A stretch of DNA of 62,991 bases, filler included, from Asterionella formosa (taxonomy: Eukaryota), in the NCBI GenBank assembly GCA_002256025.1. It is 15 parts of 15 records of this genome, joined end to end, with 100 filler letters (N's around TTAATTAATTAA, not from the genome) between each part and the next. Parts side by side here need not be neighbours in the genome. Positions count along the whole stretch, not along the records: positions 52,967 to 54,314 come from NKIB01002886.1; 14 more parts are not named here. The stretch is one strand, 5' to 3'. The notes below the pieces were generated by a model that did not search any database, was not told the DNA's origin, and worked only from the letters and a program-made list of their open reading frames with translations. Each line of letters begins with the position of its first letter. Position 1 is the stretch's first letter. Below, one piece after another: positions 1-61,645 of the stretch. The translations under genes and the position numbers were made by a program.

Positions 1-471
1 GCAGGCTATTGTAATCTCTACAATCAACAATGACTTAATAATGTGTCTACAACATCAACTACTAGTACTACGTGTGCTGAATTCTACAGTGTGAATCTTC
101 CTCTTGCATGTGTTATTCTTTGCCAGTTCAGATCAAAGCAATATGTCAGAGCGGAAAAAATAATAAGTGAATTGGAATTGGCAACTGTTTTGTTCATTAT
201 ATGGTGAAAGCAGCATAATATTGCGGCAGAGCAGCATAATTTCGCTTTTATACTGTTGCGATGGCTAGTTGGTCAACATATATTGTCACGAACACACATA
301 ATTATTGGTGTGATCACATAATTATTCGATAAGTGAAATAAATTTTTGTTTAACCCGAATAAATTAGGGAAAAAGTAGCATAATATTTCAAAAAAGCAAC
401 ATAATAATGTAGCATAAATACGTCACTTTAGACATAAATTCGAAAAAGTGCTGTAAACGGCGTCTTAGATG
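1..471. mobile_element. Terminal region of CATCT-ended TIR element (family A1), right end at 471
   Basis: Reverse complement of 18001-18482; homology stops at ...GGCGTCTTAGATG (471). A third, more diverged copy at ~13207-13484 also stops at ...GGTGTCCAAGATG. Confidence 0.7.
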
Positions 472-1781: not shown

Positions 1782-4394
1782 TTACCTGTTTATCTTCTCT
1801 TTTATGTCTATAGAGATAAATGTGACCTGTTTTTGAAATTTTTTACAATCAATAACATGTTTTTTGAGTGCATCCTGCCATGTTTTTCTTGCTAGCTTTT
1901 TCTTGTCAAACTCTTTCAAGCATTGGCGCATCATTCCATCCTTTTCCAGACCTTCAATAAAATTCTCAAAATCCTGTAGCTGGCTCTGGTTAAAACCAGA
2001 CTTCTCGATTTCCTTCAGATTCTTTAAGGGTGAAATATCATTCATCGTCTTTAAAAACCTCTGACATTTCTTAATGCAATCTTTTGGTAATCCAGGAGCA
2101 GGACACCCCAATCCACTTGCAAGTGGCACAGCCATGTTCCATAGCACAGCAATAATCACTCCAATGGCACACAACTTTTCCCCTATTTCAGCAAACATTT
2201 TCATCTTCTTAGAATATGTAATATTTTTAACTTTGTATGACACGAGCGGTTTGAGTGTCATTCCACACAACAACTGAAGGTATACCACTTCAGTTGTACA
2301 TAAGGGGTTTTTCCAGCGTTTGAGAGCAGTTTCTTTTTTGCGACTTCCCCATAACTTCTCAGCTTTATCAATAATCTCATTCATTTCATCCACTTGATTG
2401 TCAGTTCTTCCACACATTGTGGGGTTTTCATTACATGTTTTTTGGAACATTTCAAAATCATCTTTACTGAGAATTTTAAAAATATATGGGCATTTCACTG
2501 TTTCAAGCTGGATCATCAAATCAGGGAATTTCGAGAAGAGCAACTTGACTTCTTGAAATTCAGTTTGGAGTTGGTACATAGAAGTGTGCAAAGCTTCAAT
2601 TTCCTGCTGCAACTTGTTCGGATAAAAGCCTGCATTGTCTTCAAGTTTGTGAATAATTTCTGTCCAACCTTTAAATCGATCTTCTGGATCTTTCTTTAGC
2701 AATTTTTTAAGCAGGGGCTTAAAAAATTGCCAGTCATTGGAATCCGGCATTTTTCTTTGCAGCAATTTATCAAAACCATCATCATTCCAATATACTATCT
2801 TTAATAGCTCAGTGGAATTTACTTCTTCATGATCATTAACATCAAAAAGTTGGTAACCAGTGCAGAGATAATACAGAAGAGCTCCAAAGCACCACATGTC
2901 ATATTGGGGACTGGCATTAACCTCTGTAGGGCTCTGCTCCTTTTCACGCATATGGTACTCAACAACAGCCTGTTCAGGAGGCAAGTATCCAGAGCTTGTT
3001 TGCTTCTGACCAGCCTTTTCAGAGCCAATTATTGCTGCATTATCAAAATCAATTGCAGCATATCCAAGACCCTCACCACGGGACACGAAATTTCTAGCCT
3101 TCACATCTCCATGCATAACCTTACATTTTTCATTTAGGAATTGAAGGCACTTAGCAATGTCGATTGCAATCGAACGCACCAAAAGAATGTCTTTGCCTGC
3201 AATGTTTTGATGCGACAAAATATCACTGAGGTCATTACTGCTCAAACAATCCATGACTAGGAGATGTTTGTATTTCTCCTTACTGTGTTTTTCTTTCCAA
3301 CAGACATTTTTGCACAATTCAATCTTATCAGCATATGCAGCACTCAACCCATCCTTGCTGCTTGTATACTTTGCCCTTACTCTCATTATAAATGAGCCTG
3401 CGTCAGGAATTTCCATGATTGTATTCTGCTTTTCCAACTCATGCAGGAATGTGCTACTGTCTTTGAAGAGCTTGAGCGCTACCTTGATCTCTTGCATGTC
3501 TCCTGATATCTTGTCAAATTCAGTTCCAAACCCCACCACACAGGTATTTGAAACATGCTTATCCTCTTTCTCCATTTGATATTTTCGGAGATGAAGTTTG
3601 TTTGAGTCAACAAGGCATTGAATTTCTTTTTTAATTTCACTGTCAATTCCATTTTCACCAAGGACAAGTTTAGTCAAGACAGTTTGTGATTCAAGAGCTT
3701 TTAAAATCTCTTTGGCGCCATTATCACTGATGGAGTTGCTTGTGAGATAAAGTGTAGTCAAAACAGGATTGACCTTGAGGGCAGCTGCAATGGCCTTGGC
3801 GCCCTCATCACCAATTGAATTCCAATTGAGTTGAAGTGTAGTCAAGACAGTATTGAACTTAAGAGCATCTGCAATGTCCTTGGCGCCCTCATCACCAATT
3901 AAATTACCATTGAGATGAAGTGTCGTCAATACAGTATTGAACTTGAGGGCATCTGCAATGGCCTTGGCGCCATCTTTACCAATTAAATTTCTATGGAGAT
4001 AGATTCTATTCAAGACTTTATTGTACTTTAGGGCCTCTGCAATGGCCTTAACACCATGATCACCAATTTTATTATTTCCGAGCGACAATGTAGTCAAGGC
4101 AGTATTGAACTTGAGGGCGTCTGCAATTGCTTTGGTGCCTTCATCACGAATTGAATTATTTATGATTCTAAGTGTAGTCAAGGAAGTATTGACCTTGAGG
4201 GCATCTGTAATGGCCTCAGCGTCAGCATTAAGGACACTATCATCAAAAGAAAGTTTTGTCAAAAACTTATTGGCCTTGAGGGCATCTGAAAACTTCGACA
4301 AGGATTCCTCATTAAATGAAAAATGCCTGATAACAAGTTCAGTCTCTTGTGGATCGTTCTTTTCCAAAAGATTGACATAAACCAATGAAGACAT
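1782..4394 (-). CDS. LRR (ribonuclease-inhibitor/NLRC3-like 28-aa repeats) + Ser/Thr-like protein kinase + helical C-terminal region, 870 aa, intronless
   Basis: Uninterrupted ORF. About 7 tandem 84-bp repeats encoding LTTLxLxxNxIGDxGAKAIADALKxN (~3680-4290). Kinase motifs VALK, HGDVKARN, DFD (DFG position), PPE (APE position), DMWCFG. Confidence 0.9.
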   Translation of the reverse strand: MSSLVYVNLLEKNDPQETELVIRHFSFNEESLSKFSDALKANKFLTKLSFDDSVLNADAEAITDALKVNTSLTTLRIINNSIRDEGTKAIADALKFNTALTTLSLGNNKIGDHGVKAIAEALKYNKVLNRIYLHRNLIGKDGAKAIADALKFNTVLTTLHLNGNLIGDEGAKDIADALKFNTVLTTLQLNWNSIGDEGAKAIAAALKVNPVLTTLYLTSNSISDNGAKEILKALESQTVLTKLVLGENGIDSEIKKEIQCLVDSNKLHLRKYQMEKEDKHVSNTCVVGFGTEFDKISGDMQEIKVALKLFKDSSTFLHELEKQNTIMEIPDAGSFIMRVRAKYTSSKDGLSAAYADKIELCKNVCWKEKHSKEKYKHLLVMDCLSSNDLSDILSHQNIAGKDILLVRSIAIDIAKCLQFLNEKCKVMHGDVKARNFVSRGEGLGYAAIDFDNAAIIGSEKAGQKQTSSGYLPPEQAVVEYHMREKEQSPTEVNASPQYDMWCFGALLYYLCTGYQLFDVNDHEEVNSTELLKIVYWNDDGFDKLLQRKMPDSNDWQFFKPLLKKLLKKDPEDRFKGWTEIIHKLEDNAGFYPNKLQQEIEALHTSMYQLQTEFQEVKLLFSKFPDLMIQLETVKCPYIFKILSKDDFEMFQKTCNENPTMCGRTDNQVDEMNEIIDKAEKLWGSRKKETALKRWKNPLCTTEVVYLQLLCGMTLKPLVSYKVKNITYSKKMKMFAEIGEKLCAIGVIIAVLWNMAVPLASGLGCPAPGLPKDCIKKCQRFLKTMNDISPLKNLKEIEKSGFNQSQLQDFENFIEGLEKDGMMRQCLKEFDKKKLARKTWQDALKKHVIDCKKFQKQVTFISIDIKEKINR

Positions 4395-4439
4395 GGTCGA
4401 TGTCGTCCTTAATGTTTAATTCACAAGTTCGGACTCGAG

Positions 4440-4460
4440 TTAGGGTTAGGGTTAGGGTTA
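4440..4460 (+). repeat. Interstitial telomere-type repeat (TTAGGG)3TTA
   Basis: ttagggttagggttagggtta read directly, between the LRR-kinase ATG (4394) and the truncated Copia gag. Confidence 0.85.
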
Positions 4461-7110
4461 CCAATCCATGCAGCGATGCTGTCTACGAAACTACAGATAA
4501 AGACGATGTCAAGAAGATCTATGAGATGAACAATCACGCATACCAGCTCCTGGTTACGAGTTGCACTGGGATTGCGTTCAGGTTGGTTAACCAAGCCAAG
4601 ACAAAGAATCATCAAGACGGCGATGCATTCCTTGATTGGACCTACCTCAAGGCTCGTTATGTTCCTAATGGTACAAGTGACCTAATCCAACTGTCAGGAC
4701 AGTTCAACAACAAGTGCATCTTTGAGGGGAAGATGCAAGACCTAGACGAATGGTTCATCCAACTTGAGTTGTTGAGGAATCGAATGGCGACAATTGATTT
4801 TGCCTACGAAAAGAAGGATCTTGAGATGATTGCCCACATGTACACGCCTAAGTTTCACAAGAACATTGTCAGTCTGGGCGTCTTAATCCGTGATGGTTTT
4901 GACCTTTCAGTGACAGGTCTACAATGACAGTTTAAAAAGGTCGTGGAGGATATATTTCAATTAACGGAGAGACCGATGGAGTTCTCTATTATTATAAAGG
5001 AAGTCGCGCGAGTTATGCCAATGTCTTATCCATGGTTATTGCCACACCATTGTCCCAGGGGGCCGATAGTACCAAATACTTGTCTACAAAAACCCATACA
5101 GTAATGAGTGGGGAGGACAAAATGAAGTCAAAGGACATCAACAAGCAAGGCACACGATATCTATGGGCATATTGGGGAAGCTGCACTATGTGCTACGTTC
5201 AAAGCACTGAAGAGAGAACTTACTGGTACCCTCCGTTCCTGTGATGGATGCTCTAAGGTAAAGGCGAAAGCAAAGGCAGTTTCAAAAGTTTCAACTGTAC
5301 AGGCTAAACTACCCGGTGAACGGATATTTGTGGATACTTCAGGGCCGTACAAAAAGTCTATTGTGGGAAGCAATTACTGGATACTTGTGATTGATCAATT
5401 CTCAGGAAAGTCATGGAGCTTTTTTGTTAAGAAGAATAATTTACTATCCAAAATTGTGGACAAGCTATTTATCAAGCTATTTGCAGCAAATTATGTCATT
5501 GAGTATCTACGATGTGATAATTCAGGTGAAAATCTCGAAAATTTGTCATTTGTATGCACCAAGTATGGTATTCAGATTGAATACATGGCACCAAATACAC
5601 CTCAGCAAAACGGTGTTGTTGAGCGCAAGTTTGTCACCATACATGATAGAAGCTGTGCTGCTATGATCAATGCAAAGCTAAATGATGAGTTTCAAGGACT
5701 TTTTTGGGCAGAATGTGCCAACACAATGACTTGAGTGATAAATGTAGTTTTGAATTCAAGAAATATCAAGTGTCCTGATTGGCTATGGTATGGGAAACAA
5801 CCTACAATCTATGAACACTTGATCCAATTTGGACGAATTGGATATGCCACCGTAAGAACTTCTAAGCAAGTAAATGTGTCATGATTGGATGCTCTGAAAA
5901 CCACTCAGGTGATACCTACCGACTCATTAACCCTGTAACCAAGAAGGTGATTCAGAACCATGATGTAAAATGGATAGAATGGAATGGAGAAACAAACCTA
6001 CCGATGATCTGACCATTTTCAAGACTGGGATTGATGAAATTGAGTTTGAGGAGGAACTTGACCGGCCTGTTGCACCAAATCCGACTGTCATACCAGATGA
6101 TGAGACTGGATCACTTTCGACTCTTGATGACTTGCAGGTCTCTGAAGCAGGGAGGAATGAAGGTTCAAATACTTCAAAACCTGCTATTACAAGAGCTGAA
6201 CGAGAGCTCAAGAAACTTGGTCATGAAACTGCTCCAACAATGTCTACACTATGTTCTGGAAGATTGCATACTATTGTAGATGATGATCATGATCTAGATT
6301 CTAAGCCTACTTCATCCATGGAGGTTCATCATATCTACAGCTCTAAACTTGCATCAGATCCAGGTGAACCCAAGACCTACAGTGCGGCACTGAAAGCAGA
6401 TGATAGAGAAAAATGGATTCCAGCAAACAAAAGTGAAATTAATGATTTTATAAAACGAAAAGTCTGGTCAAAATTCCCACGATTTGAATTGCATGGACGC
6501 AAGCCGCTTGGGAGTCGATAGGTCTTAAAGAAAAATAAGGAACAAGACTTGACTACACGCTACAAGGCACATGTGGTCGTCAAGGGATATGTCCAAATCC
6601 CCAGTGTTGATTTTATCGACTCGTTTGCACCTGTGGCTACAGATACAAGTATCAGAGTTGTCTTTTCAATCACCATGCACAAGAAGACATGGACTTTGGA
6701 GGTCATTGATGTCGAAGCATCCTTTCTTGAAGGAGATTTAGAGGAAGACATCTACCTTGAATGGCCTGAAGGCGTTGTTGAGTTTGGTTTTGAAGACAAC
6801 TAAGTTGTCTCAGAAAATTGTATTCTTCTAAGTAAAGCCATGTATGGAACAGTGCAGGCTGCACGACAGTGGTAGAAGAAACTTGTGGAGCGTCTGATTC
6901 TCATTGGAATGAAACAGAGCAAAGTGGATCCATGCATTTTCTTCTTGAAACGTGATTTGAAATTGGCTCTAATTGTTTGTATCTATGTTGACGACTGCAA
7001 TGTTGCAGGAGAACAAGCCGATGTTGACTGGCTTAAGGCTGAAGCCAAGAAGCATTTCACCATAAAGGAACTCGGACCAATCAAGAAACATTTAGGATTT
7101 TGGTATGACT
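4461..7110 (+). mobile_element. Decayed Ty1/Copia LTR retrotransposon internal region (partial gag, GAG-pre-integrase, integrase, RT)
   Basis: gag (AYQLLVTSC..GDAF..W..LKARY). Zn motif GHIGE...CDGC. Integrase VDTSGP / LRCDNSGEN / TPQQNGVVERKF. RT YKAHVVVKGYVQ, DSFAPVA, KAMYGTVQAARQW, QSKVDPC, YVDD. INT before RT is the Copia order. Stops (~5732, 6519, 6801, 6873), frameshifts and an internal gag-PR deletion; no LTR or RNase H seen. Confidence 0.92.
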
Positions 7111-7699
7111 GGCCTGTCGTTGTGGTACTACAGGTATAGTACTAGTACCATTATATTTTCCTCCTAGCCCCCTCCTTGCTAGTTCGCTATTAACCTCACT
7201 CTGTCAATTCTCACCATTCCTTAAATTATGAGCTTAAACTAAAACCTAGTTTCAATCCAATTTATAACACTTTAAGAACAAGTTCTTAGTGTTCACTTTT
7301 AGTTAATGCAAACCTACTTCTGATTCTTGATCTGAAACTTCAGTCTCGTTAGCAAGAGTCTTGACATGGAAACGCGCCATTTGATCATTTGGAAAAAAGT
7401 CGAGTCCAAAGTCCTCGTGACTCGTAACAGCTATTGATTCTTGATTATACCGGAAGGTCTGGTAGTGCACGTTTTATGTGCACCTTTTCAGTTTCAATGC
7501 ACCACTTTCAATAGAATGTCTCATGCCTGCTGGACGAAATAGACTGGCTTTTCATTCCAAACTCTCTTAAGTAAATTTCTTCAATATTTTTTATCATTCA
7601 TCGAATGCAAGTTTTGTTCTGATCATCGAAATTGTGTTAACCTACTACTGCTGGTAATGGTATTCAGCAACTGGATGATGGTTTGCTAATGGGATTCAC

Positions 7700-7805
7700 C
7701 AATCAGAAATTTCTAGTCGTAATCAGCAAATTCTGGTTGCTGTCAGAAAAATTTTAACTGTTGCCAGCAAGTTCTACTAGTCGTTTTCAGCAGATTTCTA
7801 GTCAC
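7700..7805. repeat. Degenerate ~20-bp tandem motif (TCAGCAAATTCTAG-like)
   Basis: About 5 imperfect units here; similar units at ~8860-8930. Confidence 0.5.
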
Positions 7806-7831
7806 ACATGTATGTAGTCACCAGCTGGATC

Positions 7832-8360
7832 AGCAATTCTCGCTCCAGCTATCTTCTTGCCATTCGGGTACTTCTAAGTAGTTTTTAGGCTCTAAGTAAT
7901 TTTTATTTAGGAGCAATATGGGGCACATCGAATTTGTCGGCATTAAAATTGCCGATTTTTAGCATAACAGCCAGAATAACGGTAATATGCGTAAAACACA
8001 CGAGAAAAATAGTAACAACATGCAACATCAATGAAAATTAAACATGATGTTTGGAGCAACCACAATATGAAATGCGATTTAATAAGTTGCATAAAATTAG
8101 AAAGAGAAAAAATTGTTTTGGGTTAGAAATGAAGTACGAAATAGGAGTTTCAATGGAGACGTATGCATTGTGACATTGTAGCTAGTACTTACACAGGAGG
8201 CAACATTGACTTCTTTCCGTTAGTACCACACAAGAATCAAAGACCGAAATGAGAAAAAAAAGCGGAAACCAATTAGACCTGCATCGTTATGTAGCGTAGA
8301 TGGTCTGGTTGCTGCAACCATTCACATTGCTGTAGGAGTCTGACACCAGTAGTAGCAGAT
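7832..8360 (+). repeat. Dispersed repeat family B (probable non-autonomous element)
   Basis: Core AATTCCCGCTCCAG...TTCTAAGTAATTTTTAGGCTCTAAGTAAT...GGGGCAATATGGGGCA...GACAGCCAGAATAACGGT. Recurs at ~15300-15660 and ~32922-33460; fragments at 26502-26580, ~27480-27800, ~34596-34650, ~36419-36474. Confidence 0.8.
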
Positions 8361-9631
8361 ACGCCATCGGCGACTTCAATTTTCGTTGTCAATATTAGTG
8401 ATATTACAATTATATATTACGATTTCCATGGAGAAATTCGTTATTTTCGACAAGGTCAAGGCGGAGACGACATGATGCAGGATTCTCCAGCAGTGCACAA
8501 GAACTACACTCTAGTATTTTAATACAAAGAAAGAAATCAAAACATCTAAGCTAAATAATTATATACTAGCTTCTTTTAGGGCTCCCTCGGGTCCCAGTTA
8601 CCCTGAAATATCATATACTGGTATCCTACTACTTGGCTATCAATGTTATTTTTATGTGATATATGTATGATATTGCAAATAGTCTAGTACAGCGGTACCC
8701 TGGTATGCTGTGCGTTGTATCTGGTGTGATGATGACTGTGACCATGTATATAGGTATTACGTTACATTTGCTTATATCTAGCCATTACTATTGGCAAGGC
8801 AATCAGGGGGTAGCGGTTGTGCTCGTTCATGTATATACTTCATAGGCATAAGTGTCATTCAGAAATCTATTCTTATCCGCAAGTTCTAGCTGTTGTCAGC
8901 AAATTCTTGTCATTTTCAGCAAGTTCTAAACGTGGAAAGGTAGGATTCCTATGTGGATTCCGAAGCTAGAAGACAGTTTGCTGAACCCGGTCATCAGTCC
9001 TCAGCAAATCCGAGTCGTGTTCAGAGACTCACTCTGCAAATCGTCATCGTATCGTTTCCTAAATTACTCACGGAAAAGTTTTTTCATCGAAGCTGGCCTA
9101 TCTCGTCCGGCAGGCATGAGACAATCCATTGGAGTGCATCGAAACTGAAAAAGTGCGCATAAAACATGCGCTACCGGGCCTTCCCAGTATACCGCTATAC
9201 CAGTAAGAAGCTATTACTAGGCAAGCCGGTGCCAGTTTTTATTAACTACAAGCTTTACCAGTACCAGCAGTAGTGTACCCACACATGGAGCACTAGTCTT
9301 CTGCAGATCCATATGTGCAAGCAAGTTACAGTATAGGCCTTTTCTATAATTAAACACTGATCACCTGTGAGGAAAGTAGCAGCAAGGAGATACCATATTG
9401 CAGGGAACCACATGGCACTGAAGGCAGTGAAAACTTCAGTACATGTGAGAGGAGGACAAGCTATGGCACCAGGTTTTGGCTTGAGTGAGATGTCATTCAA
9501 ATTCATGGAGAAAAGTGTCATCTGGGGCAGCTCCGACACCCCATAAGTGTCGGCCAGAAATCGATCACTCAACTTAAGGGATAGAGGATGTATGGAGGTA
9601 ACATCCAGAGGTACATGTAAAACTTTGTTCA

Positions 9632-17358: not shown

Positions 17359-18538
17359 GCAGCCTTATCAGAACATCATTCCCGCTTAGCTAAAATTGAA
17401 CCATCAATTGTCACAAAGGTTGTGAGTTTTATTTTCAAGACCAAGAAGTTTTGCTTTGAACATGTAAGTTTGATGTTATAGTTCATGAATTGCAAGTACT
17501 GTAAAACAGAATATCAATCAAATGTGCATTTTTCTGGTCCCAAAAGAGAATCAAACATCCCGCCGCCCTATCTGGTCCAAGTAGTATGAAAGGCATTTCC
17601 AATCACAAACAGGATTCTTGGTTTGCCCAATGTTGCCTAACTCGGCTATACACAGAGAATCTGGAGTTAGGCAAAGAAGTGGAGAGTGACCCAGAGCTTG
17701 CCGATTTGGACCATTGAACGTACCAACAAGGCACGTTTAGATTACATCAAATCAACATTTGGTGGCATGTGGCTGCATTAAAAAGTTGAGAGAATGTCAA
17801 AATGTATTGAATAATCAATTTAAAGGAATCTTAGGTAAGTTCTTGCAGGGAGATGCTCCGAAAGCATGATGTTTTGATTTGGTGATTGTATTCTTATCAA
17901 ATATGTTTGAATTGAAAAATTGTAACGTAACTCATGACACACCAGCTGTTCTAACAGAATATATTTTCCAGACTATGGATTTTGATGACTTTATTAGGTG
18001 CATCTAAGACGCCATTTACGGCACTTTTTCGAATTTACGTGTAAAGCGATGTATTTATGCTACTTTTAAAAAATATTATGTTACTTTTCTAAAATATTTT
18101 ATTACTTTTCCCTAATTTATTCGGGCTCAACAAAAATTTATTTCACTTATCGAATAATTATGTAATCATACCAATAATTATGTGTGGTCATGACAATATG
18201 TGTTGACCAACAAGCCATCGCGACAGTATAAAAGCGAAATTATGCTGCTCCTCCGCAATATTATGCTGCTCTCACCATATAATGAACAAAACAGTTGCCA
18301 ATTCCGATTCACTTATTATTTTTTCCGCTCCGACATTTTTCTTTGATCTGAACTGGCAAAGAATAACACATGCAAGAGGAAGATTCACACTGTAGAATTC
18401 AGCACACGTAGTACTAGTAGTTGATGTTGTAGGCACATTGGCTGTTTAGTCATTGTTGATTGTAGAGATTACAATAGCCTGCCAGATCAGAAATAAAGCA
18501 CCGTTGGTACTAGTTGCTTGAGCATCGTTGAGCATGAT

Positions 18539-19460
18539 TGCATGTCGCCGTAGTGAATCGAAATTGAGATGTGCCACAATGGCCTTCTCCGTTTCGGAGC
18601 AGCTACAAATAGTCTACAGCGATAACTCTAGCAAGTACAATATAGAAAAAGAAGCAGAGGATGAGTAGCTGACAACAATTGAATTCGTAAATTCGTCAAG
18701 AAACAGCTGTTGTATATTTTTAATATTCAATGCATGTTGCCATAGTGAGTCAAAATTGAGATTTGCCGCAATGGCTTTCTACTATTCGGAGCATCTACAA
18801 ATAGTCTACAGCGATAACTCTAACAAGTACAAAATAAAAAAAGAAGGAGAGGAGGAGCAGCTGTCAACGATTGAATTCGTAAAATTTTTAGAAACAGCTG
18901 TTGCATATTATAACATTCAATGCATGTCGCCGTAGTGAGTCAAAATTGAGATGTGCCGCAATGGCCTTCTTCGTTTCGGAGCAGGTACAAATAGTCTACA
19001 GCGATAACTTAGCAATCCCAATATAGAGAAAGAAGGAAAGGATGAGTAGCTGACAACAATTGAATTCGTAAATTTGTGAAGAAACAGCTGTTGCATATTT
19101 TTAATATTCAATGGCTGCATGTCGCCGTAGTGAGTCGAAATTGAGATGTGCCGCAATGGTCGTCTCCTTCTCGGAGCGGCTACAAATAGTCTGCAGCGAT
19201 AACTCTAAGAAATACAATATAGAAAAAGAATCAGAGGAGGAGCAGCTGTCAACGATTGAATTCGTAAATTTGTTTAGAAACAGCTGTTGCATATTTTAAC
19301 CTTCAACACATGTCGCCGTAGTGCTTCGAAATTGAGATTCGCCACAACGGCCTGCACCTTTCCGAAGCAGCTACGAATAGTCTAAAGTTGTGACTTTCGC
19401 AAGCACAATATATAAAAACAAGCAAAGAATGAGTAGCTGTCAACGTTTGAATTAGTAAAT
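18539..19460. repeat. ~190-bp tandem array, ~5 units
   Basis: Units start TGCATGTCGCCGTAGTGA at ~18539, 18731, 18921, 19116, 19307; about 3 inverted units at ~24400-24952. Confidence 0.92.
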
Positions 19461-19547
19461 CAGTAATATTAGTAATAATTTTGGTTCCTAGTTCATTTGC
19501 CCTTTGACAATGGTCAATTTGTCAAAAAAAATTGAAATTCATTTTCA

Positions 19548-21217
19548 CTAAACTGGAGTGAAGTTCAATTGTCTTGCAACTTCTTTCATTGACCGTTTGA
19601 AATACTCATATTCACTCCTAGTCTCATTTTCCACCTTTATTCTTTCATTCTTCATCTCTTGGAAGTACCAATCTGTGGCACATTTGACTTGGTCTGGGGG
19701 AAAGTGAATAATCACGTTCAAACTCTTTGTACTCTTTGAACTCTTTGCACTCTTAGTACTACCAGTTGTTATCCTTGAAGTTCTTCCTGAAATAACTTGT
19801 GGAGTCAATCCACTCATGGAAGATGCCGGAGTTGTGCTTACTGGAAGAGAAATGGCCACTAGATCATTACGAACTCTAATGGCAGGCACATTGTTGTTCC
19901 CTGGTGTTACTTCAATGAAAATTTCCATCAGTTAGTCAATATTTTCCATGAACGTCAGTTCAACTATTCCACTTTGTTCACTTCCCCGAAGTGACTAACC
20001 TTGTGGAACTCCAGCCAAAACAAGAAGATTGGACTTAAAGCTGATTTCCAACTGCCTGCTCATGGCAGTTGTCCTTGGATGAGCAACTATGTCATACAGG
20101 CTGTTGAAGCTGGCATATCCCTATGCGTCCCAGCCCCCATATCTCTTTCCCTGTCCTCCAGTACCGGTATGAACGTATTTTGGTGCAGGAGTATCATCTT
20201 CATGACCTTTCATCATTGCCTTATGCAACCAGACATCCCAACAATTCTCCAAGACCAACAATGAAAAAACCTCTTCAGAAACACTTACAATGTCACTGAC
20301 ATGCTTCTTAGCACACTGACGTTTCCAAGACAGCTTTCGCCCAACCCTGGAATAAAAGTACTCAACTAGAAGGAAGAAAGAAAAAATGATTCTTGTCTCC
20401 TTCTCCATCACCTGTCTCCTGAATAGAAACAGAACGGCTGTAGGAGATGATATGCTTATTCAGATGAATGTGCATACCATCACGAAAAAGTCCTGAAGTT
20501 TTGTAGATTGGAATGGAATGATTTGTAAGTATTAAGCAATGAGTATGTTTAAGAGGTCAAGAAGAAATCAGGCATACCAAGTCAACAAGTTGTTTACTTA
20601 CTAGCAAAGACATGTTTGAGAGTGGTAACAACAGCATTTCTTTTCTCAGACATCACTTTATTAATATCATTCTTACATGTCTGCCAAATTGACTTTAATT
20701 CCTTATCAGTTCCCATGAATAGGCTTGGGAAGTGAGCACGAAATGAGAGTGCCAGACTAGTTGGTCCCCTTTCATCAAGGTCAATATCACCTGTGATAAA
20801 CTTTACTTTTGGAAAAAGTTCAAGTTTGACCCATTGACCAACATTTCGGTTCCAATGCCATGGCCACCAGAAAGTTGAAGTCTTTGCTTCTCCGTTACTT
20901 CCCGAAGCTCGTCAATATACTTTCTACTTTTCTTCAACTCAGATTGAAGAAACTCTAAGGAAAGGCCCTTGTGATCAGAAATAGTCGAAATGTTTTTTTA
21001 CCATCAGTTAATGAATGAGACTTTCATCCTCATCACTGAAGAAATCGCTGTTCTCTGCTCCAGGAATAGAGACTCCATTGTCACGTTCACTGTCAGATGC
21101 AGAGGAAGCCTCAGCCTGCTGAGACAGCTCCTGAATATGTTTTGACATGATATCCGAAATAGTTTGCCAGAGATTTATAGCAATTGGATCGCGAACAACC
21201 ACTGATTGATCACTCAT
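19548..21217 (-). pseudogene. Decayed, probably intron-containing gene(s) of unknown function inside the repeat element
   Basis: Fragments such as VSVSEEVFSLLVLENCWDVW...PKY...YGGW and FIEVTPGNNNVPAIRVRNDLVAI; the latter recurs at 23609-24310 (+) with an extra internal segment. Confidence 0.5.
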
Positions 21218-21708
21218 TTATTCGCAACAGTGGACATTTTCCCTTTGGCTGAAATTGCAAATGGCCATTGTTGCTAGTCTACCGGTCTACTGGTAGACTG
21301 CTACACTAATAATAATCAAGCATCATCACCTTCAAAATTCAACAGTTACTGAATGGCGCGACAGTAAAAGTACTTGCTACTAGTAGCTACTAGCAGCGAT
21401 TCAGGGAAATTATACGCACAAACAAGGACCAGGTATTGTATATAGTACATCCGAGTATTCGTGCGTCTTGTACTATTTATCTAGTAGGTACTAGATGCAG
21501 GTGCTAGGATTCGGACACAAAAACATTGCAACTAGCTACTACTGGCTTCCTGCCTGTTTGTTGGAACAGAAAAACTGCCAGCCATCCTCACATGACTCTA
21601 TATTTCTCTAATAATTGCACTTTTTCGCAACAATTGCGTTACTCTCCTCTTCTCTCTTTCCTTTCTCCCTTCGAGACTTCTTTCTCGCTCAAGAACAGAC
21701 CAGCCAAG

Positions 21709-22053
21709 ATGTGCGATGGTTTCTGTCCTTTCGAGGATCACAGGGCTCAGTATGGTGATGATGATACTATGTATCCTCATTACCACATCAAGACGAATTT
21801 CAGTGTTCCTTTCACTACTGACTAGTTTAAGAGTAATTGCGACAGTATGGACAAGTTACTTGAGATTGGTATGTTCAAGGATTTCCAGAGAGATCCTGAA
21901 TTGTCCATGAAGAAACTCTATCTTCGATTGATCAGCGCGTATGAGAATGAGTCCTTTCTCCCTCAACGCTATTGGTTGGTCCCCTTCAGTCCAGAGTCTA
22001 TGAGTCTGATCCGCGAGGGATACAGGACTCATGTGGATTATCCACTGCTCTAT
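21709..22053 (+). pseudogene. Short ORF interrupted by in-frame TAG, runs off contig
   Basis: MCDGFCPF...FTTD*FKSNCDSMDKLLEIG... in one frame with TAG at 21823-21825; no recognisable domain. Confidence 0.3.
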
Positions 22054-22153: not shown

Positions 22154-22475
22154 TATAGAATTACGTGAACAAAAATTTAAGGCAATGTGAACTGAATTAC
22201 AGAATTAATTGAAGTATTTCAAATAATTATGTGAAGTATTTCAAATAATTATGTGATGTATTTCAAATAATTATGTGAAGGTGATCACGTAATATAGTGA
22301 TGATTAGGAATGCATGCATGATACTCTGATCAAATAATGAACGTGATGTATTCAGATAATATATAGATATATTCAAGTAAGCATTTTGATGTATTCAACT
22401 AATTCATGTGATCCATTCAAAATCAACTAGGCTTATTTACGTGATGGTCACTTCACGTAATACGCGGCTTAGATG
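22154..22475. mobile_element. Right end of CATCT-ended family A2 (TIR 22456-22475) with 22-bp subterminal repeats
   Basis: Reverse complement of 22456-22475 is CATCTAAGCCGCGTATTACG, 18/20 identical to 59648-59667. GTGAAGTATTTCAAATAATTAT occurs about 3 times at ~22210-22280. Confidence 0.7.
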
Positions 22476-51518: not shown

Positions 51519-52866
51519 CTATACTGTTCAACATCTTCATTGATGACTTGGCAGTGGGGACGGAGGAGAGCGGTGCCCTGGTACCAACTGGGGACAGTCG
51601 CACATGGCGGAACTCCACACCCACACTGACAGTGGGATGTACCCTCTTTGCTGATGATGCGGCCGGAATCTGCCCCTCCCTGGAGGCGGCCAAACGGTTC
51701 TGTACGCACGTTACCAACTGGGTTACAGCTAACGAGATGAGTGTGGGCATAGGGAAGTGCGGGCTGATGGAATTCCTACCGCCAGACCCAGGTTCGGCCA
51801 CCGAACCGCTTGTCCCTGGACAAGATGTGGCTGGACTGGAACTGGAGGGACTTCCACTCCCTGTTGTGGACAGATATATGTATCTGGGTGTCCTCATGAC
51901 ACCAGGTCTGTCTATCTCGTCTATGGTGGACCATAGAGTCAAGCAAGGGCGGGCCACAGTTGCCACCTTGGTACCGTTTCTACGGTGCCCGGTGGTACCA
52001 ATGGCCATGCGTTTGCTGACTGTTGCAGGAGTAGTTGCCCCCCGCCTCCTTTTTGGGGCTGAGCTGTATGGTATGAATCGTCACCTTACGGACAAAATGC
52101 AGGTTCTTCTGAACCGATGCCTTAGGGCTAGCATTGGAGCCAGGAGGGCAGGGGATGTGCCATCATTAGGCCTTTGGAAGGAGGCACGGATGTTGCCAAT
52201 GTGTGCCTTGGCGGGTGCCCGACGGGCCAGAGCTTATGCCAAGGCCTCGGGTCTCAAAACCTGGCTTCAGGAATTGGTCCTAAGACCATTCCGAAGTCAG
52301 AAATGGACATGGTGCTCGGGGGTTCCGCGCTGGCTGAAACGCTATGCGCTCCCCCATGCGCCAGAGTCTATTGTGGAGAGGTACTTGGGTGCTGGATGGC
52401 AGAGCCTGGAACCAAAGGTACTGGCTGAGGTAGTGAAAGCATGCATCTTGGAGAGAGAGTGTGGGATCCGACGGAACTTGACTCGTCCGTCGGGGGCCCG
52501 CACAGTGTGGTATGAGGGAGCCGGATTTGACAAGCATCCACTCACACGGTCATGTGTGGGGGGCAGTCCCAAAGACCAAGCAGGACTGGCTTTGATAGTT
52601 CGGTGTCGGATTGGGGCATTTGTAACTGTCCCCACCTTGGTGGGGTGGAAGCGAATGCCTCATAGGTATTTGAGGAAGTGTCCATTTTGTGGTATGGATG
52701 AACCAGAAATGCTGGAACACTTAGTGTTCACGTGTGGTCGGTGGCGTGGTCTACGCACCGAGCCACACATGGCAGAATTGATCGCGAAAGTTCGGACGTT
52801 AGGGCCGAATTTCGCCCTCGGTTTTGACCAACAACGGTTGGCATGGCTCCTCGGAGGGAGTTGTGA
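51519..52866 (+). mobile_element. Non-LTR retrotransposon (LINE, RTE/RTEX-like) ORF: RT C-terminal half + CCHC zinc finger
   Basis: LFNIFIDDL, TLFADDAA, YMYLGV, CPFC...EHLVFTC; open across the whole contig. First 80 bp identical to 62912-62991. Confidence 0.92.
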
Positions 52867-52966: not shown

Positions 52967-53176
52967 ACATGCATTAATGCCACTCTTCACGTAAAAAGGT
53001 TACTTTTAACGGTTTCATGTGAAGTTTTAACGGTTTCATGTGAAGTTTTAACTGTTTCATGTGAAGTTTTCACAATGAATTTTGAACGCGAGACTGAATT
53101 AGTTGATGTTTCAAATAATTCATTTGAAAGTTCAACTAAGATCCTGCTCTTGAGGCTAATACATTCGCAACACGCA
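52967..53176 (+). repeat. Subterminal region of CATCT family A2 (21-bp subrepeats TTTTAACGGTTTCATGTGAAG)
   Basis: Near-identical to 59907-60099 apart from subrepeat copy number and small indels. Confidence 0.9.
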
Positions 53177-53644
53177 TTTTACTTAATGAAATAGTAAGGA
53201 TATTTGTGGTGTCTAATGTCATCCATCTGAGATCAAAGTTTTACGGTTGTACACATCACATGAAGAACTCACACTTACCGGTAAAAAAGCTCCCTCTTCC
53301 CAGTTTTCATGTTATGTAGGTAATTACCGGTACTAGGTAAATGTACTACTAGCCAGTGGTAGGCAACCCAATTTTTTTACGTGATTATTATTACTCAAAA
53401 TCAACACTGGTGGAGTTATGTCTACTGATGAGGATGGTACCAGGTAGTATTGTTTGCCAAATATGTGCCGAACAAGGTCCATTATTTTAGCTACCTGTTA
53501 TTCTTATTTTTCTCTCGCCAACACAGCACTGCAACGACAGTAAATATCATGGATCTGTGTGACAATAACGACGAGGACAAATTTTAAATTCTGTGGTAAA
53601 GGTCCTTTTAAATCAATTCGTGGTCATCACAGACACAGCCCCTT

Positions 53645-54304
53645 GTGTGGGCAACAATATATGATTCATTACTTTCCAACAATATCGACATGTTTTGGAA
53701 AACTTTGTCTATGGTCATTCCCGGTTCTGTGCTGCAATCACTTGTAAGTGACGCAACATATGTCAGGAAGAGTATGCCTCACACCTGTACATTGTTGCAC
53801 ACTGCTGTAAATCACTCAAATGTTACTCAGGAGCCACATTTTGACTATCAGCAGGCAGAACTGGTAGTCAATGACTTCGAAAAGTGCCTTCCTTGGGGAT
53901 TGGATATGTCCCTAGGTGCTGGTAGTTTCTCTATAAATATCTGGGATGGCGAGTCATTTGAGTGTAACCTCATTTTAGATCGAAAAGGTACAGGTAAAGC
54001 GGAATTCAAGCAACATGCCATGGAGCATGTAAACCAACATGCGATGCTTCTTCGCATTCCCTTCAAGTACATCTTTTTAATGCGAGGTGATACAGTTCAT
54101 GCAGGTGCTATGGATAATCACCAAAGCAATGGTGCATTGAGACTTCACATGTATTTGTCGCCTGGTTCCACTCCAGAGCAAAACTCAGTTGCTATTTGCA
54201 AAAGATTCGGAAATGCCATTAACACAAAAGCAAATGGTACAGAGCGTATCCCTCCATCACTAGTTTCGTTTTTGCTTGATTCCTATGGGGAAAGATGGAA
54301 GTAA
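53645..54304 (+). CDS. Putative 2OG-Fe(II) dioxygenase-fold protein; 5' end uncertain
   Basis: QEPHFDY (HxD, His codon at 53837), then MRGDTVHAGA (distal His at 54098), then RLHMYL (Arg on a terminal strand). Upstream in-frame TAAs at ~53585-53611 may lie in a GT..AG intron (53540-53632). Confidence 0.55.
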   Translation: MWATIYDSLLSNNIDMFWKTLSMVIPGSVLQSLVSDATYVRKSMPHTCTLLHTAVNHSNVTQEPHFDYQQAELVVNDFEKCLPWGLDMSLGAGSFSINIWDGESFECNLILDRKGTGKAEFKQHAMEHVNQHAMLLRIPFKYIFLMRGDTVHAGAMDNHQSNGALRLHMYLSPGSTPEQNSVAICKRFGNAINTKANGTERIPPSLVSFLLDSYGERWK

Positions 54305-54414
54305 GAATTTTTTTNNNNNNNNNNNNNNNNNNNNNNNNNNNNNNNNNNNNNNNNNNNNTTAATTAATTAANNNNNNNNNNNNNNNNNNNNNNNNNNNNNN
54401 NNNNNNNNNNNNNN

Positions 54415-55623: not shown

Positions 55624-56206
55624 TCCCCCTCCAGCATCTCATAACAAAATGAGATAAAAGGAGTAGAATCAATGATTGTCAAAGAACTGATTTGTCAGGC
55701 CGTGCAAGCGTGGCGACCGCACGATGACCAGCATCGATAAATTGATATCCCATCATAGTCANNNNNNNNNNNNNNNNNNNNNNNNNNNNNNNNNNNNNNN
55801 NNNNNTTAATTAATTAANNNNNNNNNNNNNNNNNNNNNNNNNNNNNNNNNNNNNNNNNNNNTCCTTGGGACTTCGTCATGTTGTGGCGTTCTACCCCCTG
55901 CTCCATAACCACAGCCACCCTGTCGCGGGCCGTTGCAACGCACGATAATGGGTGATGTACCAAATTTTTCCGGTATAATAGAGGGGGGGGGCAGCGCTTT
56001 GACTTTCACAGCCTCTCTACGGAGCTGCGACAGAAAATAATAGGGAAAAACATAGTACCACCATAACCGTAGGTGCTACTTAAAGGTGCTGATAAAAGAT
56101 GTAGACGTACTACCTGGTACCGGTAGTAACTCGTCAGCCTGGCTAATTATCGCGCCAGTTAAATTCATAAAAGCAATATTAGTATGATAACTACCGGGTA
56201 GGTATG

Positions 56207-57207
56207 CCAGAACATATGGTGTTCTGTTGCTCGCTTATTACTCCGACTATTGGTTTTTAGTTTTACGATCATACAATCCTAGAACTATGATGATTTATTG
56301 TCCCACGGTAGTAGCAACAGTCCTGAATATATGGTATTCCATTGGTTTTTAGTTTTACGATCATACGATCCTAAAATTATGATGATTTACTGTCCCACTG
56401 CAGTAGCAACAGTCATGAACATATGGTGTTCTTTTGGATCATAATTTTACGATCATACGATCCTAAAACTATGATGATTTACTGTCCCACTGCAGTAGCA
56501 ACAGTCCTGAACATATGGTGTTCTGTTGCTAGTTTACCGGTACTACTCCGACTACCCCCAGTATATCACTTACTACCTGCTACTGGTACCCTGTATGTAT
56601 AAATGACACATTGTTATTGTCATATGATGTACCGGTACACATGAAGAGCTCCAGCCCAAAAAAGGGGCATTTGAACGGTCTAAATAATTAGTTTCAACGG
56701 ACGTAGAAAATATCGATGCAAAAAAATTTCAGAGATAATACCGGTACACGTAGTCGTGGAAAACAATGGACATATAGTGCATTGAGTATTTTCGAATTAT
56801 GTATATGCGAGTATGATCATCTCAACCATATCAGATGTTCCATATCGAGAGCGCCTTTGAATTTTATAAAATGTATTACGCTATATATATATATATTTAC
56901 AAATTTTATTAGTATATTCATGGCCAGTATATTTTTCAAATCGTTCTGTCATGTTAACAAACAATGCCTGCTGCTTCATGAAAAGATACGTCGTAGTAAA
57001 GCACATGACAAGAAAAGAAAATTTTCGCAATACATAACGAAAAACATTGTGACTTCGACACATTGCGCCTTCGAAGGATGGAGAATGTTTAAGGTAATAT
57101 AATGAAGCCATCAATGTGGTACTTGGATGACAATCGTTGGGAGACAGGCAGCACAACAACAAATTGTTAACTAAACGCAGCCACATTTCCTTTTTTCTCA
57201 GTTGATT
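56207..57207. repeat. Inverted paralog of 11360-12420 incl. 115-bp unit array
   Basis: GAACATATGGTGTTCTGTTGCT / GATCATACGATCC units and shared flank. Confidence 0.85.
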
Positions 57208-58753: not shown

Positions 58754-59647
58754 GCTGAAAACGTATTTTCACTTTACACTTTGTAATATTGTGAGCTTTC
58801 TGTTAATAGTCTATCTAGGTCTTGTTCTTGCCTGATTACTCATGTAATCCCGAACAAGACTTCTCACACTTTCCTTGATCTCGTCAAGAATGATCTTGCT
58901 TACTTTGACAATAAGTAAGCATATTCATTTGACAATAAGTGAGCAGCACTTATTCTTTTGACAATAAGTGAGCATCTGATTCACTTGTCAATAAGTAACA
59001 TCTCCAGTCTTTTGTCAATGAGTAAACATCTCCAGTCCAGTCATTTATCAATAAGTAAACATCTCCAGTCATTTGTCAATAAATGTCGAAATGTTTTGGG
59101 TCTTGGTTTCTAATCACTGTTAAGAATATTGATTCTCGATTCGTTGGATTCCATATATTTTATCACCCTCCCTGATCTCGAAACCAACAATCCATGGTCC
59201 CATTCATAATGTGGGTTGCATGAGTGTCATGAATTTTCTGAGTGACATTCTTTGAAAGTAGGTCTGCAGGATTCTTTAAAGTATTCACATAGTCAACTCT
59301 AATATCCCCAGCCTTCACCTTTTCTCGTATGAAATGATATCTTACATCAATGTGCTTAGTTCGTGAACCAACCTGCTGATTCTTTGATAGAAAAATTGCA
59401 CCTATATTGTCTTCTGCAATGATACTGGGCATTTCCAAGTATTCAACTTCATTGTGTAGATTCATTATAAAAGTAGTTTCCTTTGATCCATCTGATAGAG
59501 CCACATACTCTGCTTCAGTGCTGGAAACAGTAACAATCTTCTGTCCATTCGAAATCCAATTCACTAGCGATGCACCACCAATCGTACCCAAATATTCACT
59601 TGTCGATTTCCTTGTATCTGGATTGTCCCCGAATGAGCTGTCTACCA
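58754..59647 (-). mobile_element. Ty1/Copia RNase H, PPT and probable 3' LTR
   Basis: VDSSFGDNPDTRKSTS...SSTEAEYVA...EDNIGAI...RTKHIDVRYHFIRE...NPADLLSK. Then CAGGGAGGG|TG at ~59164 and about 7 imperfect TTGxCAATAAGT repeats (58903-59082) in the presumed LTR. Confidence 0.9.
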
Positions 59648-60099
59648 CATCTAAGCCGCGAAATACGCCACTTTTCCAAATTTCGTGTACGTATGAGTGT
59701 TAATTATGTGGTACTTCACATGCATTAATGCTACTCTTCACATAAAAAAGATTACTTTTAACGGTTTCATGTGAAGTTTTAACTGTTTCATGTGAAGTTT
59801 TCACAATGAATTTTGAACGCGAGACTGAATTAGTTGATGTTTCAAATGATTCATTTGACTTTTCGAAATTTCGTCTACGTACGAGTGTTAATTATGTGGT
59901 ACTTCACATGCATTAATGCCACTCTTCACGTAAAAAAGGTTACTTTTAACGGTTTCATGTGAAGTTTTAACGGTTTCATGTGAAGTTTTCACAATGAATT
60001 TTGAACGCGAGACTGAATTAGTTGATGTTTCAAATAATTCATTTGAAAGTTCAACTAAGATCCTGCTCTTGAGGCTAATTAATACATTCGCAACACGCA
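59648..60099 (+). mobile_element. Left end of CATCT family A2 inserted into Copia RNase H
   Basis: Begins CATCTAAGCCGCGAAATACG exactly where RNase H homology stops; two ~188-bp tandem units containing 21-bp subrepeats follow. Confidence 0.75.
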
Positions 60100-60559: not shown

Positions 60560-61645
60560 CCGACCAACACTTGCTACACTTCCTCCTGATGCACCCCCAG
60601 TTTCTTCTGCATCTCCAGTCGCTTCTCCTAGCCTAATCACAGAGGGTCCTATTACATCTGTTTCTCCAGTGATTTCGCCGATTGATCGACCAACACTTGC
60701 TATCCACTGTATAATACTATCATATTAGCTAACTGTTGACTTTAACTGTATACATTAAACGACAAACACATATATTAATTAACATACTTTATGATTGCTT
60801 GATTTATATTCTATGATGTCTTGGTAACACTTGCGTATATATTTTATCGTATTTTATTATCATTGTATTATTTTAACATAATCATATTTTGATCACAATT
60901 ATATCACAATTATTACATAAAATCATCATAATTTTATGATCAGTGTATCATAGTTCTGTGATGTACTTTATTCTATATTACGTATCATACTTTGGTGATG
61001 TATGAATCGATGTAACCTTATCATGATATCACAGTACCTGGTACCTGGTACCTGGTATCATCTTATCAATCATGATGAGATGATTGGGAAGCAACTGTAT
61101 TCTGCATCGTGCTACAGGGTATATTATTATATCACGCAATTTGCAATTTAGTAGCGAAGTCACTCCGCCTGTAATGTTCTAAAGTCGACAGTGCACATGC
61201 CGGTACTCACACGCTAATCAGGTTTGAGGCAACGGACAGTGTTTCCAACGAGCGAATGATGATACCACGGGTACCAATTTTTCCAACGAAAGAACTTGTC
61301 TCTCTATTGATGAGGATGACACGGACACCGACTTTTCCAGGAGCAAACAACAATGAAGAGACCCACTTGTCGCTCTATTGATGGTAACAAAGATACGGAC
61401 AAGTTCAACAGTGAATTCTACTTTATCATGGCGATCCATCCGTGAAAGGAAGCATTGGATATTTGGAGTCTCTGCTGAGGGGAAGGGGTCAGTTCGAAGA
61501 CCTTTGGAGTAGAGAGGAGCTGAATACCAACATCCCAGAAAGAAANNNNNNNNNNNNNNNNNNNNNNNNNNNNNNNNNNNNNNNNNNNNTTAATTAATTA
61601 ANNNNNNNNNNNNNNNNNNNNNNNNNNNNNNNNNNNNNNNNNNNN

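Follow-up and report, generated by a model that had tools for sequence, protein, structure and literature searches.

In this study, we analysed a window of 62,991 bases from the Asterionella formosa genome assembly GCA_002256025.1, in which 15 contigs (two of 22 kb and 13 of about 1.35 kb) are joined end to end by N/TTAATTAATTAA linkers; positions refer to this window unless another contig is named. One of the small contigs, NKIB01002886.1, begins in the subterminal block of a transposon end, continues into the 5′ part of a Plavaka transposase gene and closes with the 3′ part of a second open reading frame (ORF), here called ORF2, whose translation contains an HxD...H...R signature of the 2-oxoglutarate-Fe(II) (2OG-Fe(II)) dioxygenases (Table 1). 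A preliminary description of this DNA had read the last of these, a 219-aa ORF, as an apparent cargo gene of a transposon with CATCT ends. Our analysis indicates that the contig is likely to be a non-autonomous, deleted copy of a Plavaka transposon whose intact copies encode a probable PhyH-like dioxygenase.

The organization of the less damaged element was obtained from a scan of metagenome contigs, which yielded an 8552-bp contig (L001) with an uninterrupted 457-aa ORF2 that is 99% identical to P0010, an ORF2 protein whose 90% cluster comprises 116 member sequences. In L001, the full ORF2 lies 385 bp downstream of the transposase ORF, on the same strand, and is followed by ORF3. The transposase matches the Pfam family 'Plavaka transposase' (PF18759) with an E value of 1.2e-10 and 41.6 bits (cut-off 26.3) over profile positions 34–320 of 325, and at the sequence level the transposon was shown to be of the Plavaka type (CACTA/EnSpm-Mirage-Chapaev-Transib group). 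No Pfam match was found for ORF2, ORF3, or ORF4 of L001 or for the L001 pieces flanking ORF2, and PDB sequence searches with ORF3b and with the transposase gave no match. A homologue of ORF3 (59% and 41% identity to L001 ORF3) is present in the window within about 3 kb of the sister-family end CATCTAAGACGCC at 18001; given this proximity of ORF3 to a transposon end and the position of ORF2 between transposase and ORF3 in L001, ORF2 is placed inside the element. The layout of L001, together with the profile results given below, points to a CATCT-ended family that carries its own 2OG-Fe(II)-dioxygenase-like gene, as the preliminary description had proposed.

The copy in the window, by contrast with L001, is a deletion derivative. 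Its contig positions 59–702 correspond to L001 1–647 (98.5% identity) and its positions 698–1346 to L001 4550–5198 (98.6%), so that about 3.9 kb has been removed, a stretch that held the greater part of the transposase and codons 1–244 of ORF2. The same joint (645→4553) was found in two DNA runs of different studies, X1 (four contigs) and X5 (one contig), and is therefore not an assembly artefact of the window. What remains of ORF2 corresponds to residues 242–457 of the 457-aa P0010 (95.8% identity), and a profile search detected residues 1–241 nowhere in the window, the remnant being the only ORF2-like frame there. Of the transposase, only the first 73 or so residues are retained: in tblastn, L001 transposase residues 1–44 and 46–73 match window 53450–53669. 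The stub translation reads MDLCDNNDEDKF followed by a stop, and the ORF2 remnant lies in a different reading frame. Relative to L001, the remnant shows seven nonsynonymous and two synonymous differences. The window copy is dead, that is, non-autonomous, internally deleted, and decaying, and its ORF2 is a pseudogene and not a working cargo gene. The 219-aa ORF is thus a 5′-truncated remnant and not a whole gene, and the intron that the preliminary description had suspected at 53540–53632 is the start of the transposase frame, which is open and unspliced in L001. An RNA-supported joint near that supposed intron (110→760) was also considered and was rejected, as it occurs in DNA runs too and lacks GT..AG ends.

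Internal deletion derivatives of the Ac/Ds type keep their ends, lose their interior, show short microhomology at the junction, and are mobile only with the transposase of an autonomous copy. The window copy resembles them, on sequence alone, and there is nothing unusual in the likeness. Its deletion may have arisen by faulty gap repair after excision. Interior fragments of the element are also present on two further contigs of the window, and in run X5 a loose end at L001 5948 carries the continuation that the window shows beyond 56208.

Table 1. Features of the transposon copies in the window and in the metagenome contig L001
Feature	Position	Strand	Remarks
Window
Contig under study	52967–54314		1348 bp; exactly one of the 15 joined contigs
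Left subterminal block of the element	52967–53176	+	87% to 59906–60099, 84% to 59718–59858
21-bp subterminal tandem repeat TTTTAACGGTTTCATGTGAAG	53004–53070	+	3.2 copies
Plavaka transposase 5′ stub, Cys/His-rich N-terminus	53549–53668	+	Premature stop 53585–53587, after 12 codons
ORF	53645–54304	+	219 aa only with GTG start; first ATG 53690
ORF2 3′ remnant	53654–54304	+	Stop codon 54302–54304
Internal deletion junction	53667–53669 (53668/53669)	+	L001 647 joined to 4550; 2-bp microhomology CA
QEPHFD	53828–53845	+	Translated ORF2 remnant
HxD (His-Phe-Asp), predicted iron triad	53837–53845	+	Invariant in alignments A1 and A4; aligns with PhyH HxD
GDTVHAG	54086–54106	+	Distal His 54098–54100 aligns with PhyH distal His
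Distal His and conserved Arg-x-His region (GDTVHAG...GALRLHMY)	54098–54154	+	RLH 54140–54148, RLHMY 54140–54154
Element-interior fragment	55862–56208	+	L001 5604–5948 at 98.6%, then diverges from L001
Left end, other copy of the same family	59648–60099	+	TIR CATCTAAGCCGCG and subterminal block as 188-bp units
Probable right end of the family	22154–22475	+	Inverted TIR 22463–22475 and 22-bp subterminal repeats with ATGTGAAG core
Sister-family end and interior (CATCTAAGACGCC)	18001–22053	+	ORF3 homologue on minus strand 20037–20857
L001
Subterminal block including 21-bp repeats	1 to about 300
Transposase ORF, 1000 aa	430–3432		Pfam 'Plavaka transposase' PF18759
ORF2, 457 aa	3817–5190
ORF3	6079–7199		In two frames
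ORF4	7287–8060

The ends of the family were traced in the other contigs. As the preliminary description had stated, the contig starts with the subterminal block that accompanies the end CATCTAAGCCGCG at 59648. Near that end, a 188-bp block beginning 22 bases inward of CATCTAAGCCGCG is present in two copies, which bases 1–210 of the contig match at 87% and 84%. By comparison with 59648–60099, the terminal inverted repeat (TIR) of the copy under study would be located outside its contig, upstream by about 70 or 258 bases. The end motif occurs exactly as CATCTAAGCCGCG at 59648 (plus strand) and 22463 (minus strand), and as CATCTAAGACGCC at 459 (minus strand) and 18001 (plus strand); these four occurrences (at most two mismatches) compare with 0.43 expected, and none of 100 shuffles reached four. 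All four ends start with CATCTAAG, in keeping with the 5′-CA that begins the TIRs of the Plavaka group. The two exact ends are the same in 13 of 13 TIR bases, agree in 18 of their first 20, and have 21–22-bp tandem repeats behind the TIR with the common core ATGTGAAG. The 21-bp unit TTTTAACGGTTTCATGTGAAG is also found at 59756–59989 in two arrays of 2.2 copies each, and for the core ATGTGAAGT the window contains 11 occurrences (0.99 expected), 10 of which fall within element end regions. We infer that these repeats are candidate transposase-binding sites. The left end at 59648 is inserted in an unrelated minus-strand ORF; this interrupted frame (59166–59699, 178 aa) has no Pfam match, and tandem repeats of 27–33 bp lie just beyond it (58904–59082). 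On the first 22-kb contig, the sister-family end type CATCTAAGACGCC is present on both sides in inverted orientation (1–471, minus strand; 18001–22053, plus strand), the two being alike over about 470 bases, which is probably what caused the assembly to break at this point.

The C-terminal half of ORF2 is very probably a PhyH-like Fe(II)/2OG dioxygenase domain. The ORF2 family possesses the HxD...H triad and a distal Arg, within the conserved pattern Q.PH.DY ... PW..D.PL..GG..LN.W ... RGD.VH.GG ... GA.R.H.YL (45-row consensus). H303, D305, H390, R404, and H406 are invariant in six of six sequences in alignments A1 and A4, at identities down to 32%, and the HxD...H...R residues reported earlier for the contig are present as described. 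His303, Asp305, and His390 are the predicted iron ligands, and Arg404 is predicted to bind 2-oxoglutarate. In motif order and content, ORF2 is like the PhyH family (PF05721): Q.pH.D, W..D/L...G.l, GD/Gs..H.G..N, and R. It differs from PhyH in missing the Pfam model at E ≤ 10 and in having an extra N-terminal region of about 240 residues without known relatives; for this region no relative was found in the ESM Atlas (best 0.83) or by hhalign against PhyH, AlkB-like, 2OG-FeII_Oxy_3, and ParB.

A profile of the ORF2 C-terminal region (38 sequences) was compared by hhalign with family alignments built from bacterial genomes. The scores were 27.4 for PhyH (P 0.0024), 15.1 for AlkB-like, 14.6 for Cupin_8, 13.1 for 2OG-FeII_Oxy_3, and 10.5 for TauD, with reversed controls for these general alignments at 11.6–14.7; as a yardstick, true distant pairs of 2OG families score 17–53 (PhyH vs. 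Cupin_8, 28.8). Against a 19-member PhyH subfamily, the score was 55.3 (probability 93.6%, 86 columns; reversed control 12.5), with HxD on HxD and distal His on distal His, and a P value of 2e-7 that is inflated because this template was chosen via the distal-His motif. When the distal-His region was cut from both profiles, HxD still fell on HxD (25.1, P 0.0023; reversed control 12.9), and this is the unbiased part of the comparison, since the choice of template rested on the motif removed. In a search of the six frames of 401 bacterial genomes, the ORF2 profile gave seven weak hits, the two best being PhyH proteins (Pfam E 3e-30 and 2e-31) and the third an unrelated DUF968 protein. In a second sample of 281 genomes, all four hits at E ≤ 0.1 were PhyH proteins, two of them new, the Pfam E values for PhyH overall being 1e-30 to 1e-33. 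The single bacterial hits are not significant (E 0.006–0.04 per genome); it is the recurrence of PhyH that counts. The sole PDB sequence match of the ORF2 profile was the '2OG-Fe(II) oxygenase' 8xp6 (E 1.4), at the GD.VH.G motif, and the ESM Atlas neighbours were a 2OG-Fe(II) oxygenase (0.93) and PhyH (0.91), both below the recognition mark. The A1 profile searched against PDB sequences gave myoglobin only (E 1.1), which was dismissed as noise.

ORF2 is not confined to the copies described so far. An exhaustive HMMER search found 93 representatives of the family at E ≤ 1e-3; all 40 members with a source label came from ENA/JGI metagenome sets, with none from NCBI or UniRef. In viral contigs, the A1 profile found no relatives, and none of 13 pattern matches was confirmed. 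The element stretch was present at least partly in 20 of the 24 runs listed (from 16 studies; six RNA), with run labels that are coded or name algae, freshwater, or lake metagenomes. Among the further copies, L002 has an ORF2 that has lost 20 bp, with a shift of frame, and that is preceded by an unrelated sequence (L002 1–711), which is in frame with ORF2 for about 170 codons and has no Pfam match; this suggests a second setting for ORF2 or the use of a different 5′ exon. In P0008, a public metagenome ORF, ORF2 (...QEPHFDYQQAEL) runs straight into a translated sister-element end (cf. window 53860 and 18001), suggesting that the sister Plavaka family inserted in ORF2, the accessory gene of the other family.

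Two RNA contigs align to L001 without a gap, one of 1415 nt over 3765–5179 and one of 1325 nt over 3815–5104. The first belongs to a polyA library made from the sample that also supplied the best DNA source, the second to a metatranscriptome. These two contigs suggest that ORF2 is intronless and present in RNA libraries, in which DNA may also be present. The polyA run X20 showed some depth on ORF2 and none on the transposase (L001 1145–3718), which we did not count as a result. Downstream of ORF2, L001 5242–5948 has an RNA-library depth 50–100 times that of ORF2; it has no Pfam match and holds a 143-bp direct duplication (5294–5384, 5437–5527). Just upstream of ORF2, L001 3723–3789 is identical over 67 bases (100%) to window 61270–61336 (minus strand) on an unrelated contig. 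In each of the four runs compared, this piece shows loose ends at either side, and its RNA-library depth is very high; it may represent a small repeat or a piece of host DNA that was captured, and the open frame preceding the ORF2 ATG continues through it. The last 97 bases of L001 (8456–8552) repeat the 3′ end of ORF2 (94%), and contigs of two runs depart at 8471; the repeat is due to a duplication within the element or to a join made in assembly.

The intact element would be a cut-and-paste Plavaka-type transposon of about 9–10 kb in an aquatic microbial eukaryote, with CATCTAAGCCGCG ends, 21–22-bp subterminal repeats with the ATGTGAAG core, a 1000-aa transposase, the 457-aa ORF2, and two more ORFs. 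By analogy with CACTA-type elements, its transposase would bind the TIRs and subterminal repeats and move the element by cut and paste. ORF2 would work to the benefit of the element. Its most probable action would be to oxidise, at element copies or close to them, a mark of silencing, either a methylated base or a chromatin protein bearing methyl or other modifications; the preliminary description had likewise thought of modified DNA, RNA, or chromatin as possible targets. Such an anti-silencing function is proposed by analogy with the TET/JBP genes of fungal transposons and with PAG3 of a red-algal Plavaka, and we hold it tentatively, with more reserve than conviction. Work on a model diatom reports that DNA methylation is depleted when DNMT5a is lost, and that young transposons are overexpressed; for a diatom host, a target of this kind therefore exists in principle.

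A number of observations speak against this interpretation or loosen it. At the level of the element, the window offers solitary ends only, with no both-ended copy or target-site duplication seen, and the TIRs are absent from L001 and from the contig under study. At the level of the protein, no Pfam family matches the ORF at E ≤ 10, and none of relevance matches P0010 and 26 relatives at E ≤ 0.1; the general PhyH alignment is weak against ORF2 (27.4, probability 12%), and the higher score against the PhyH subfamily carries the bias in template choice noted above. The preliminary description would have abandoned its proposal had ORF2 lacked a double-stranded beta-helix; the profiles point to that fold, which is judged from them only. 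The possible presence of DNA in the RNA libraries bears on the reading of ORF2 as expressed. As for the proposed function, CpG observed/expected values were 0.54–0.72 in the element and 0.62–0.76 in the two 22-kb contigs, so that no element-specific CpG depletion, and no methylation signature peculiar to the element, was found relative to the latter. PhyH-type enzymes are mostly small-molecule or protein hydroxylases, which weakens the analogy with DNA demethylation; the substrate of ORF2 could equally be a protein.

Several other explanations were weighed. The one that survives best, which we nevertheless regard as unlikely, is that ORF2 is a passenger, a host dioxygenase gene captured by the element (Pack-type) and transcribed with no benefit to it. 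Some relatives do look like host genes, having very different low-complexity N-termini (P0066, 1032 aa; P0048, 669 aa; P0077), the two L001 segments on either side of ORF2 (3723–3789 and 5242–5948) are shared with highly expressed sequences elsewhere, and in L002 ORF2 has a different upstream context. A gene of no use to the element would, however, hardly fit the full-length open ORF2 that is kept across diverged subfamilies (P0010/P0002 at 65–71% identity, P0105/P0011 at about 32%) with its catalytic-type residues invariant. The ratio of nonsynonymous to synonymous substitution rates was 0.36 even against a decayed copy, a rough value only because that copy, L003, is full of stops (at least nine). 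The same argument has been made for transposon-borne TET genes of fungi (Kojima, 2025, PMC12730594, in excerpt).

It is considerably less probable that ORF2 is a very divergent TET/JBP enzyme with 5-methylcytosine as the base that it oxidises, comparable to the PE-type proteins of fungal PlavakaB. In the excerpt of Kojima (2025, PMC12730594), the Plavaka that carry TET genes are all PlavakaB, a lineage with 2–3-bp duplications whose CATCA..TGATG termini resemble the CATCT found here, and PE-type TET proteins have diverged so far that their detection requires HHpred or structure comparison. The methylation loss and transposon overexpression in the diatom without DNMT5a would also suit such an enzyme. 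Yet PF12851 (TET_JBP) was not matched by the ORF, searched at E ≤ 10, or by P0010 with 26 relatives, searched at E ≤ 0.1, and all significant remote similarity of ORF2 goes to PhyH. Judged by matches to PF12851, membership of ORF2 in TET/JBP is unsupported, and the suspicion voiced in the preliminary description, that the oxygenase belongs to some other family, agrees with these results. The TET/JBP family was found in none of the 401 bacterial genomes searched.

Slightly more improbable still is that ORF2 is not an enzyme at all and is instead a structural or DNA-binding accessory protein, like TnpA of CACTA elements. The lack of any curated family match and an N-terminal stretch of 240 residues without a recognisable relative would be compatible with this, but what is conserved is precisely the triad of the 2OG oxygenases together with Arg, in the linear order of the PhyH motifs, among which PW..D.PL..GG corresponds to W.LDD.T..NGG. 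Finally, the possibility that the ORF belongs to the host as a single-copy sequence and lies next to a solo transposon end by chance, which the preliminary description had named as fatal to its proposal and to which the single end-proximal block on the contig and the lack of a second ORF2 copy in the window might point, is already refuted and has practically no standing left, since many diverged and broken copies exist in public data and the stretch between block and ORF is 5′ sequence of the transposase, joined to ORF2 by deletion from the intact element.

We therefore return to a Plavaka element with a PhyH-like accessory gene, for which two known systems offer comparison. PlavakaB of Agaricales fungi, as presented in the excerpt of Kojima (2025, PMC12730594), shares with the element described here the Plavaka transposase, CATC(A/T) termini, many degenerate copies, and one accessory Fe(II)/2OG dioxygenase gene that curated models barely or never recognise; the element described here differs in its non-fungal host, in its PhyH-like oxygenase, and in two extra ORFs (ORF3 and ORF4). 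The anti-silencing role of the transposon-borne TET/JBP genes in Agaricales is itself presumed there, without an experiment (Kojima, 2025, PMC12730594, in excerpt, citing Iyer et al., 2014). Giant Plavaka elements with the accessory genes PAG1–3 have been described from the red alga Bostrychia moritziana (preprint 10.1101/2025.02.11.637652, in excerpt). Compared by description only, these are similar in combining a transposase with several accessory genes, and the detection picture of PAG3 is the same as that of ORF2: it has no InterPro domain, and a 2OG-oxygenase domain is found by HHpred only, with the PhyH-type protein 2OPW_A as best match (e 0.016). Unlike L001, the red-algal elements are 17–19 kb long in that account and carry a methylase/SET gene (PAG2), none of which is present on L001. 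The same source gives PAG3 a ParB-like N-terminus (HHpred e 0.29, weak) and adjacent inverted-repeat arrays. Residues 1–240 of ORF2 scored 10.8 against 21 ParB proteins in hhalign (reversed control 10.4), and in L001 no inverted repeats were found beside ORF2, unlike the case described for PAG3.

The other contigs of the window carry ordinary eukaryotic genes (a leucine-rich-repeat protein kinase, an IQ-motif protein, and HMG-CoA reductase) and pieces of retroelements. The contig at 51519–52866 is GC-rich (56%, compared with about 40% elsewhere) and contains a 450-aa open frame ending in the Cys/His motif CPFCG...H..F.C. This frame looks like the C-terminal part of the ORF2 of a non-long-terminal-repeat retrotransposon; it gave no Pfam match at E ≤ 0.01.

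For genome annotation, it would be advisable to mask the 219-aa ORF as the pseudogene of a transposon, so that it is not listed among the host dioxygenases. The combination of Plavaka with a 2OG-oxygenase accessory gene is already known from fungi (TET/JBP) and red algae (PAG3). According to the Spirogyra genome paper, Plavaka had been reported earlier only in fungi, and that paper adds Archaeplastida; in our literature searches, we found no report of a Plavaka-borne oxygenase in stramenopiles or diatoms. It is conceivable, though we remain doubtful, that ORF2 founds an unnamed PhyH-like family, to date recorded from metagenomes only, that is a selected, standing accessory gene of Plavaka beyond fungi and red algae. 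If so, 2OG oxygenases of unrelated kinds would have been taken up by Plavaka on two or more occasions (TET/JBP in fungi; a PhyH-like enzyme here and perhaps in red algae), which would suggest that Plavaka transposons have a general need for the oxidative removal of a host silencing mark. Transposons with a chromatin- or DNA-modifying enzyme of their own are rare and are natural experiments in the escape from silencing. Were a non-TET oxygenase carried by Plavaka in a third lineage, the association would be shown to recur, and a compact enzyme of 457 aa would become available for substrate tests.

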